Assembly (NCBI GenBank): GCA_000004985.1
Contig: GG738908.1
Length of the DNA: 64,000 nucleotides
Source: Naegleria gruberi
Lineage: Eukaryota
Reading direction: 5' to 3' (one strand)
The translations under genes were made by a program, and so were the position numbers. Each line of letters starts with the position of its first letter. Within the stretch, counting starts at the first letter, position 1. The notes under the pieces are model-generated. The model was not told the origin of the DNA and did not search any database. It saw only the letters and a program-made list of their open reading frames with translations. Positions 45,401-46,954 of this stretch are shown here, in pieces.

Positions 45401-46954
45401 ATATTTTTGATTATTAATAAATTCCAATATAGTTCTAATATTATTCATTAAATTATTAATAGTTAATAAATGTTCATTATTTTCAATATTATAATTATTA
45501 CTTGTTAATCTTTCAATTAAATTACAACAATTATTTAAATTATTACAAATTGTTAAATATTCATCTTGAAATTCTTTCTTAATTTGAATAGAAGAAGAAA
45601 ATGATTGAATCGATTCAAATTGTTTTTCAACTTTTCTTCTATTATTATCAACTTGTTGGTTGAGTGAACATAATTTTGAAAATGTTTCAGATGTGATTAT
45701 GAATGATTGTTTTTTCTCTAATTCTTTTCTTTCTCTTTCTATTTTTAGTAAACATTCTTTTTCAATTCTTTCCTTTTCAATTCTTTCCATTTCTAATTTT
45801 TTAATTCTTTCTCTTTCTAATCTTTCCATTTCTAGTTGGTTAAATTTTAATTGTTCCGATTGTTCTTTTAATAGTTGTTGTTCTTTTTCCATGTCACTTT
45901 TAATTGTTTGAATATTAATTCCATTCACTGACCATGTGTAATTTATGTTAATATTTGGATGTTGAAGTAATTGTTTAACAATTTCTAAATGCCCATTTTG
46001 GCAAGCAGTGTATAATGGTGGCTAATATATAAAAATAAAAATTAAATTAAATATTAAATACTTACAAACTAATATTATAAATATAAAAATTAAATTAAAT
46101 ATTAAAATACTTACTTTCTAATATTATAAATAAAATTAAATTAAATATTAAAATACTTACACGCTAATATTATAAATATAAATATAAATTAAATATTAAA
46201 ATACTTACACCCAAATTAACATCAATTGTTTTACATGATAATAATAATTTAACAATTTCTAAATAACCATTTTGGCAAGCAGTGTATAATGGTGTCTAAT
46301 ATTATAAATATAAAATTAAATTAAATATTAAAATACTTACATCCTAATATTATAAATAATATTAAATTAAATATTAAAATACTTACAAACTAATATTATA
46401 AATATAAAATTAAATTAAATATTAAAATACTTACATCCTAATATTATAAATATAAACTAAAATTAAATATTAAAATACTTACAACCTAATATTATAAATA
46501 ATATTAAATTAAATATTAAATTACTTACATCCTAATATTATAAATAATATTAAATTAAATATTAAAATACTTACAAACTAATATTATAAATATAAAATTA
46601 AATTAAATATTAAAATACTTACAACCTAATATTATAAATAATATTAAATTAAATATTAAAATACTTACATCCTAATATTATAAATAATATTAAATTAAAT
46701 ATTAAAATACTTACAAACTAATATTATAAATATAAATTAAATATTAAAATACTTACACCCAAATTAACATCAATTGTTTTACATGATAATAATAATTTAA
46801 CAATTTCTAAATGTCCTTTTTGGCAAGCAATAATTAACATGGTACAACCTTCTGATTTATTATTAACATCTTGTTCATTAAAATAATTATTAAATTCATC
46901 AATTTTGCCGTCTCTCGCAGCATCAAGCGCCTTCTGAAAATCTCGTGTGGCCAT
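42466..46954 (-). CDS. Multi-domain protein with 3 ankyrin repeats, a long E/K-rich coiled coil, a protein kinase domain (interrupted by a gap), a second coiled coil and a PARP catalytic domain; at least 3 exons
   Basis: Exon 1 is 46954..46757 (MATRDFQKALDAARDG...[31 protein letters not shown]). Exon 2 is 46295..46209 ([29 protein letters not shown], exactly one ANK repeat). Exon 3 runs from 46021 ([23 protein letters not shown]...) through the N gap 43843..44355 to the stop at 42466. The kinase N-lobe is ...VFIGIDLNDKKHIIKQYNLK...HSNIIEIEGIYTESDN, then the gap, then the C-lobe ...IILGDFDIS...GTLDYLAPE. The PARP has YLWHGT (H), GIYFAEY (Y) and YREFIVYD (E). The frame across the gap cannot be checked. 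Confidence 0.65.
43843..44355. other. Assembly gap (513 N) inside the kinase domain; also a single n at 44424
   Basis: A run of n. Confidence 0.99.
46022..46208 (-). repeat. Intron 2 of the ANK-kinase-PARP gene, built from ~4 tandem copies of a ~47-bp mini-intron-like unit
   Basis: On the minus strand each unit reads (N2-3)GTAAGTATTTTAATATTTAATTTAAT(T)ATATTTATAATATTAG. Confidence 0.7.
46296..46756 (-). repeat. Intron 1 of the same gene, built from ~10 tandem copies of the same 47-bp GTAAGT...TATTAG unit
   Basis: The ~47-nt period and unit variants cctaatattataaataatattaaattaaatattaaaatacttaca(t/aa/ac) are visible directly. Confidence 0.7.

Follow-up and report, generated by a model that had tools for sequence, protein, structure and literature searches.

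Tandem arrays of formally complete short introns with single-codon spacers between ankyrin-repeat exons in a Naegleria gruberi gene

Introduction

The origin of spliceosomal introns is a long-standing question with very few cases caught in the act. Here we describe two tandem arrays of short introns in a Naegleria gruberi gene, found on a 64,000-nucleotide (nt) stretch of contig GG738908.1 (assembly GCA_000004985.1), which is referred to as the window. The gene lies on the minus strand at 42466..46954. Its two arrays separate the first three exons and contain 14 near-identical, formally competent introns made in place, apparently without a transposon. Neighboring introns within an array are separated by a single codon.

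Introners are near-identical intron copies dispersed in unrelated genes via transposition, as in Micromonas, Aureococcus and fungi. The Naegleria units are likewise near-identical intron copies in one genome, implying recent multiplication, but they are strictly tandem and confined to one locus of the 64 kb. The introner reading was rejected, as the unit occurs in the window only at the array locus and transposon hallmarks are not seen. The unit alignment shows no visible terminal repeats or flanking target-site duplications, and the spacers differ (TTT, GAT, GTT, CGT and AAA). No link between introners and Naegleria was found in the literature. Another related process is recursive splicing at ratchet points, described for Drosophila Ubx and other long introns, in which the donor is regenerated around a zero-length exon. 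In both cases an acceptor beside a donor within the intron permits stepwise removal. At a ratchet point AG abuts GT, whereas in Naegleria 3 nt always lie between them, so that each step would leave 3 nt and remove about 44 nt.

Intron gain by tandem genomic duplication (the Rogers model) has been described by Hellsten et al. 2011 (PMC3265369), in potato RdRp (PMC4974935) and in Drosophila near-intron pairs (PMC2891723). The Naegleria arrays share with it the duplication in situ of a segment carrying splice signals, the lack of foreign sequence and an intron size set by the size of the duplication. The cases known so far start from an exonic AGGT proto-splice site, whose doubling yields a single new intron. 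The Naegleria repeat is a whole pre-existing intron plus one codon, it is present up to 10-fold and it leaves 3-nt 'exons'. Schistosoma micro-exon genes (MEGs) contain runs of symmetrical micro-exons of 3–81 bp with introns of up to 5 kb (PMC10526429). The 12 putative micro-exons described here, all of 3 nt and phase 0, form the same kind of symmetrical run, in which exons are multiples of 3 down to 3 bp and can be skipped in frame. MEG products are secreted, disordered parasite proteins, whereas the Naegleria micro-exons fall in the loop of a folded repeat, the introns are tandem, near-identical and only 39–46 nt long (about 44 nt), and the product combines ankyrin (ANK), kinase and PARP domains and has no signal-peptide-like hydrophobic N-terminus by eye. 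Inclusion of 3-nt exons by the spliceosome is known in animals, in Drosophila hth (PMC7392893), MAP4K5 (PMC8632122) and RPS24. Those exons are single, conserved, often regulated and flanked by long introns, while the Naegleria ones form strings of up to nine. Finally, like an intronic minisatellite or variable number tandem repeat, the arrays are AT-rich tandem repeats of about 46 nt within an intron and are prone to copy-number change. Unlike an ordinary one, each unit has a full donor and acceptor at native intron spacing and a one-codon spacer. The locus is a variant of intronic minisatellites, tandem-duplication intron gain and micro-exons. Its array form is apparently undescribed; in the literature searched on Naegleria micro-exons, minimum intron length, introners, tandem introns and 3-nt exons, no account was found of complete short introns arrayed in tandem with 3-nt exons between them.

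Structure of the two intron arrays

Parsing of the coding strand gives 10 units in array 1 and 4 in array 2. All units begin with GTAAGT (14/14) and end with TATTAG (14/14), as an earlier note on this DNA had read them, and its copy numbers of about 10 and about 4 are also borne out. The same note had spaced the units by 2–3 nt and considered micro-exons of 2 or 3 nt. Here the internal spacers are exactly 3 nt in 12 of 12 cases and never 2 nt. None of the 12 is a stop codon; each is one full sense codon, which excludes a frameshift. The units, all on the minus strand, are as follows.

46296..46756 (-), array 1, u1–u10, with nine spacers TTT GAT GTT TTT GAT GTT GAT TTT GAT, translated F D V F D V D F D
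46718..46756 (-), u1, 39 nt, then spacer TTT (46715-46717)
46672..46714 (-), u2, 43 nt, then spacer GAT (46669-46671)
46626..46668 (-), u3, 43 nt, then spacer GTT (46623-46625)
46578..46622 (-), u4, 45 nt, then spacer TTT (46575-46577)
46532..46574 (-), u5, 43 nt, then spacer GAT (46529-46531)
46486..46528 (-), u6, 43 nt, then spacer GTT (46483-46485)
46438..46482 (-), u7, 45 nt, then spacer GAT (46435-46437)
46390..46434 (-), u8, 45 nt, then spacer TTT (46387-46389)
46344..46386 (-), u9, 43 nt, then spacer GAT (46341-46343)
46296..46340 (-), u10, 45 nt, acceptor adjoining exon 2 (ACA...)
46022..46208 (-), array 2, u11–u14, with three spacers CGT AAA TTT, translated R K F
46164..46208 (-), u11, 45 nt, equal to u1 plus a TATATT duplication, then spacer CGT (46161-46163)
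46118..46160 (-), u12, 43 nt, then spacer AAA (46115-46117)
46069..46114 (-), u13, 46 nt, then spacer TTT (46066-46068)
46022..46065 (-), u14, 44 nt, the most diverged of the units, acceptor adjoining exon 3 (CCA...)

Array 1 has a higher-order structure, as a three-unit block (43-GAT, 43-GTT, 45-TTT) is present twice. Tandem Repeats Finder, a check that had been suggested for this locus, recovers the array family at 46022..46764 with a period of 46 (16.1 copies, with the 87-nt exon between the blocks counted in), 81% matches and a score of 864, or with an alternative higher-order period of 94. By the usual definition of a head-to-tail unit of 10–100 nt, the arrays are a tandem repeat or minisatellite. 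The 26-nt core of the unit has 13 matches at three or fewer mismatches in the 64-kb window, all inside the array locus, compared to 0.00 expected from shuffles.

The arrays lie between the exons of a gene that encodes three ankyrin repeats, a long coiled coil, a protein kinase, a second coiled coil and a PARP catalytic domain. This combination of ANK, kinase and PARP domains is unusual.

46757..46954 (-), exon 1, ATG at 46954, 66 codons, N-terminal cap and ankyrin repeat 1, ending ...IDVNLG; next intron in phase 0
46209..46295 (-), exon 2, 87 nt, 29 codons, exactly one ankyrin repeat, ending VNLG
44356..46021 (-), exon 3, ankyrin repeat 3, long coiled coil and start of the kinase, running into the gap 43843-44355
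42466..43842 (-), remainder of the gene past the N gap, kinase C-lobe, coiled coil, PARP catalytic domain and stop codon

That each of the first three exons encodes one ankyrin repeat ending in VNLG, as claimed earlier, holds for exon 2. Exon 1 carries the cap as well as a repeat, and exon 3 is open for more than 550 codons, with no VNLG at its end. All three junctions of the gene are in phase 0, and unspliced read-through of the arrays meets stop codons. The kinase domain is broken by the assembly gap at 43843-44355. Past the gap, PARP scores 83.8 bits and Pkinase 24.2 bits in Pfam. More than 1,100 codons stand in an intact frame on both sides, with recognizable ANK, kinase and PARP domains. 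The best protein matches are two predicted proteins of Naegleria gruberi.

Single units as introns of this genome

The earlier description of each copy as a complete minimal intron stands in the formal sense, that of a GT-AG unit of native length. The U2-type termini are present in 14 of 14 units. Verified introns in the window have GTAAGT or GTTAGT donors and YAG acceptors. A survey of the window by joining of open reading frames (ORFs) gives candidate introns of 41, 45, 46 and 48 nt, as well as longer ones of 62–189 nt. The very short introns, at 948..988, 1169..1216 and 2177..2221 on the plus strand and at 55880..55835 on the minus strand, are found in a kinase gene and a G8/CEMIP β-helix gene. 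Three of them are verified by continuity of a Pfam domain over the junction: the Pkinase domain (143.5 bits in one stretch) is unbroken across the introns of 41 nt (948..988) and 48 nt (1169..1216), and the CEMIP β-helix (212.5 bits) is unbroken across the 46-nt intron at 55880..55835. Because introns of 41, 46 and 48 nt are verified in the same window, units of 39–46 nt belong to the native size class. No further closely spaced short introns were found in the 64-kb window.

Splicing of the arrays and fit to the ankyrin fold

Two ways of splicing the arrays are both in frame. If each array is removed as one intron, VNLG is followed directly by TPLY at the first junction and by PPLY at the second, and the repeats are 29 residues long. 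If the units are removed singly and the spacers kept, the junctions read VNLG-FDVFDVDFD-TPLY and VNLG-RKF-PPLY, and the ankyrin period is 38 and 32 residues instead of 29. The two predict different mRNAs, 36 nt (27 + 9) apart in length. Whole-array removal predicts the junctions GTTAATTTGGGT joined to ACACCATTATAC and GTTAATTTGGGT joined to CCACCATTATAC, with k-mers GATGTTAATTTGGGTACACCATTATACACT and GATGTTAATTTGGGTCCACCATTATACACT. Unit-by-unit removal predicts an mRNA containing ...TTGGGTTTTGATGTTTTTGATGTT... or ...TTGGGTCGTAAATTTCCACCA..., with k-mers GTTAATTTGGGTTTTGATGTTTTTGATGTTGATTTTGATACACCATTATAC and GTTAATTTGGGTCGTAAATTTCCACCATTATAC. With one codon per junction, the outcome is readable in mRNA, and RNA sequencing data of N. 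gruberi exist (PRJEB23822, cited in PMC6142364).

The ankyrin profiles fit better when the spacers are kept. Ank_2 scores 108.5 bits with spacers and 84.8 bits with whole arrays removed, Ank_KRIT1 scores 45.4 and 38.1 bits, respectively, and Ank_5 scores 61.5 and 59.3 bits. Ank scores 78–79 bits, and the ankyrin match (PF00023/PF12796) is above the gathering cut-offs (21.1 bits for Ank, PF00023, and 27.3 bits for Ank_2, PF12796). The multi-repeat hidden Markov models (HMMs) span the inter-repeat loop, and their gain from the spacers is due mainly to restored loop length. In loop 2, five residues (LGRKF) lie between VN and PPLY when the spacers are kept, compared to seven between VN and TPLH in canonical repeats.

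A public N. gruberi model, XP_002668491.1 (NAEGRDRAFT_76596), maps to the window and treats the units as separate introns with 3-nt exons. Exon 2 matches its residues 224-252 at 100% identity, and exon 3 corresponds to the residues from 256 on. The stretches between, residues 216-223 (DVFDVDFD) and 253-255 (RKF), are translated spacers, 8 of 9 from array 1 and 3 of 3 from array 2. That a public model already splits the arrays unit by unit goes beyond the earlier note. Residues 1-215 of this model correspond to 50858..50223, a part of the syntaxin-like gene at 49839..50858 (-). The syntaxin-like and ankyrin parts are joined via an 'intron' of about 3.5 kb, and the terminal exon (...RRKNYIGIY) is spurious. 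The real ankyrin-kinase-PARP gene seems not to be annotated as such.

A paralogue, XP_002674588.1 (NAEGRDRAFT_70343), has the same three-repeat layout and is 83–93% identical in the flanking exons. Exon 1 is 86% identical to its residues 3-65, and the part of the gene past the gap is 89% identical to its residues 608-784. The paralogue model stops short of the PARP part. It carries inserts at exactly the same two junctions, VNLG-NRD-SPLY and VNL-TDYRDY-SPLY. These are short, periodic and rich in Asp and aromatic residues, and their lengths are unlike those at the array locus. Differing copy numbers of a codon-plus-intron array would yield such inserts.

An independent parallel in a metagenome contig

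Metagenome contigs were scanned for three consecutive GTAAGT...TAG mini-introns with 3-nt spacers, and at least 120 loci were found. Among the matches listed, almost every one is a simple repeat of the (GTAA)n type or a minisatellite with no ORF at its flanks, so this count says nothing on function. The two-unit tandem pattern built from the Naegleria unit has no exact match in the metagenome contigs. The only true analogue among the matches listed is on an unrelated contig of 17% GC content, Ga0207864_1037532 (L002). At 930..1425 on its plus strand, 87-nt exons of a single ankyrin repeat flank five mini-introns of 40, 35, 38, 44 and 36 nt, separated by the spacers AAA TGG AAT AGT (K-W-N-S). 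The interiors of these introns are diverged and the ends are conserved, with a mean identity of 83% in the first 12 nt and 73% in the last 10 nt. Another possible 3-nt exon (TTT) lies upstream, between GTATGT and GTAAAC introns.

In L002 the 29 codons of the exon and the four spacer codons add up to the canonical 33-residue repeat. The resulting loop, AKNKWNS-TPLH, has the length of that in an uninterrupted relative (P0165, VKDRWQQ-TPLH), with Trp at the equal position. Ank_5 rises from 75.6 bits without the spacers to 96.0 bits with them. Five splice-site pairs at exact 3-nt spacing despite diverged bodies are hard to explain unless they are used. A protein search with the micro-exon version of L002 for an identical transcript-derived protein gives generic ankyrin matches only, at 70% identity or less. 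As L002 shows, arrays of this kind can be old and are probably functional in some organism, though this is no proof for N. gruberi.

Variation among units and origin of the arrays

The variation among the Naegleria units is quite uneven. No column varies in the donor (0/6) or the acceptor (0/5), while all three spacer columns do (3/3). The minimal number of events is 2 in the 15 columns of the 5' body, 3 in the 8 columns of the 3' body and at least 6 in the spacers, and the unit center is rich in indels. At least 6 of 11 non-central events thus fall in the 3 of 37 columns that form the spacers (binomial P ~9e-5). In sequence the spacers (GTT, GAT, TTT, CGT) resemble decayed forms of the GGT that ends the exon. 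If they derive from GGT, there are five G-losing events at the two spacer G's and none at the three splice-site G's (P ~0.01). It counts as modest evidence for protection of the internal splice sites. Stop-codon avoidance and the constant 3-nt spacing were also considered as evidence of selection and were dropped, since the roughly 5 independent spacer types leave them non-significant.

Exon 2 is chimeric. Its first 48 nt match the head of exon 3 at 45 of 48 positions, and its final 39 nt match the tail of exon 1 at 39 of 39. The identical suffix of exons 1 and 2 is 56 nt long, and the identity carries on into the first unit of each array. The chimerism is the apparent signature of unequal crossing-over inside the LEIVK-coding stretch. 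Co-amplification of exon and intron by unequal crossing-over, followed by expansion of the unit, had been proposed before, and it is well supported by the exon 3/exon 1 chimera and by the identity that extends into u1 and u11.

From these features we propose how the locus may have formed. At two phase-0 positions, each within the loop that connects one ankyrin repeat to the next, an ordinary intron of about 45 nt and one adjacent codon would have been amplified in tandem, giving 10 copies at one position and 4 at the other. The arrays could have arisen by slippage or unequal crossing-over of the quasi-palindromic AT-rich unit, whose self-complementarity would favor slippage at the DNA level. 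The exon-plus-array module would itself have been duplicated by unequal crossing-over within the LEIVK-coding segment. This short-intron organism would recognize introns across the intron, and its spliceosome would most likely take the units out one by one. The remaining strings of single-codon micro-exons, F-D-V-F-D-V-D-F-D and R-K-F, would lengthen the β-hairpin loops between repeats. Given equivalent donors and acceptors and 3-nt spacers, any pairing or change in copy number would stay in frame, and the locus could gain or lose copies, or mis-pair, and still encode the protein.

Should the units be spliced one by one, the locus would be an extreme case of micro-exon use and of intron density. 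Duplicating a codon and an intron in tandem would then both create introns and lengthen protein loops in one step, which would explain changes of loop length in repeat proteins without a frameshift. Even with whole-array removal, the locus is a natural test of acceptor choice among ten equivalents by an intron-defining spliceosome.

Weighing of the alternative readings

As to function, we favor unit-by-unit splicing over whole-array removal, and the latter over a mixed ladder of products. That the units are spliced one by one and leave single-codon micro-exons has, in our judgment, about an even chance of being correct. Somewhat more tentative is the wider proposal that single-codon exons flanked by introns of about 40 nt could be a real, heritable way to encode ankyrin β-hairpin loops in short-intron protists, born by tandem duplication of a codon and an intron as in N. 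gruberi and able to persist while the intron bodies diverge as in L002; we lean slightly against so broad a statement. On this wider view, intron gain at one intron for each codon would be directly observable, and loop length would have a built-in source of variation that always stays in frame.

Several observations weigh against splicing of single units. Unit u1 (39 nt) is slightly below the shortest verified intron (41 nt). The units are without any C and offer only TTAAT or ATAAT as branch-site candidates, while a CTAAY branch-like motif is present in 4 of 6 neighboring introns and has no counterpart in the units. The 5' body of the unit (positions 7–21) is nearly as invariant as the splice sites, and splice-site conservation may reflect the youth of the arrays rather than selection. 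In loop 1 there are 11 residues between VN and TPLY (LG and nine spacer codons), compared to the canonical seven. Array 1 as RNA (46290..46762, -) can fold into one long, imperfect hairpin, owing to the quasi-palindromic nature of the AT-rich unit. Its energy is -108.3 kcal/mol, compared to -74.2 ± 4.1 kcal/mol in shuffles (z = -8.3), and it pairs the end of exon 1 (GGGUG) with the start of exon 2 (CACC). Such a hairpin would bury the internal sites and juxtapose the outermost donor and acceptor. Folding of single units shows no significant RNA structure. The public model XP_002668491.1 is a chimera of two genes that jumps over the intervening G-alpha gene, and it is probably an ab initio prediction, not based on complementary DNA; for these reasons it is no evidence of actual splicing.

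Several of these points fit a reading in which each array is one long intron (461 and 187 nt). The ends of this intron would have given rise to a minisatellite in its interior, splicing would use the outermost donor and acceptor alone, perhaps aided by the hairpin, and the spacers would never be expressed. We consider this possible but rather doubtful. Besides the missing CTAAY and the end-to-end fold that brings exon 1 beside exon 2, it agrees with the in-frame removal of whole arrays, after which the ankyrin matches are still significant (Ank_2 at 84.8 bits), and with introns of 62–189 nt that are normal in the adjoining G-alpha gene. The arrays look young, so their intact internal splice sites require no selection. 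Minisatellites from an intron donor end also occur elsewhere, as in L018, described below. Under the long-intron reading, however, the spliceosome would have to ignore nine nearer acceptors, one every ~46 nt, at the preferred intron length, and this is hard to accept. The 29-residue repeats would miss most of the β-hairpin and fit the multi-repeat HMMs less well. No part of the unit varies more than the spacers, while the splice-site G's are all intact, and a neutral intron interior would not be expected to keep, as L002 does, five diverged units whose ends are intact and whose spacing is exactly 3 nt.

The example in L018 (JAAUYG010186919.1) lies on the minus strand at ~169..375, where a 21-nt unit, GTAAGTNTTACACAGTAGAGT, is repeated about 13 times in tandem behind an SH2-like exon (...GTFLVRESDR...). 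The repeat is a donor-only minisatellite, with units too short for introns.

It is unlikely, though conceivable, that donors and acceptors pair in a stochastic or regulated manner. This would give a ladder of in-frame isoforms with 0–9 and 0–3 extra loop residues, and the alternative splicing raised in the earlier note would thereby be limited to whole codons. Every donor–acceptor pairing is in frame because every spacer is one sense codon, and with near-identical donors and acceptors and 3-nt non-stop spacers there are 55 × 10 possible pairings. The 39-nt u1 may be skipped, and partial sequestration in RNA structure could vary the choice of sites. On the other hand, the nearest compatible pair is usually spliced efficiently in short-intron organisms, and no regulatory sequence difference is seen between the units. 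Last, a mis-assembled low-complexity sequence or a pseudogene is very improbable and was rejected: the draft assembly has five N runs, one (43843-44355) inside the gene, and AT-rich tandem repeats are error-prone, but each array fits in one Sanger read, the units follow an ordered higher-order pattern unlike noise, the long reading frame is intact with its ANK, kinase and PARP domains recognizable, and a paralogue has the same architecture.

Neighboring genes and base composition of the window

The window is a draft assembly of 31% GC content with N runs (assembly gaps) at 15544-16658, 18359-18408, 22769-25800, 43843-44355 and 44424. The very low GC content at 22–26 kb in the profile is due to the 3-kb gap and not to base composition. 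The G-alpha gene, for a G-protein α-subunit, lies at 47561..49062 (-), between the ankyrin and syntaxin-like genes. Its introns are 189, 62 and ~156 nt long, the last read by eye, with donors GTAAGT, GTAAGT and GTTAGT.

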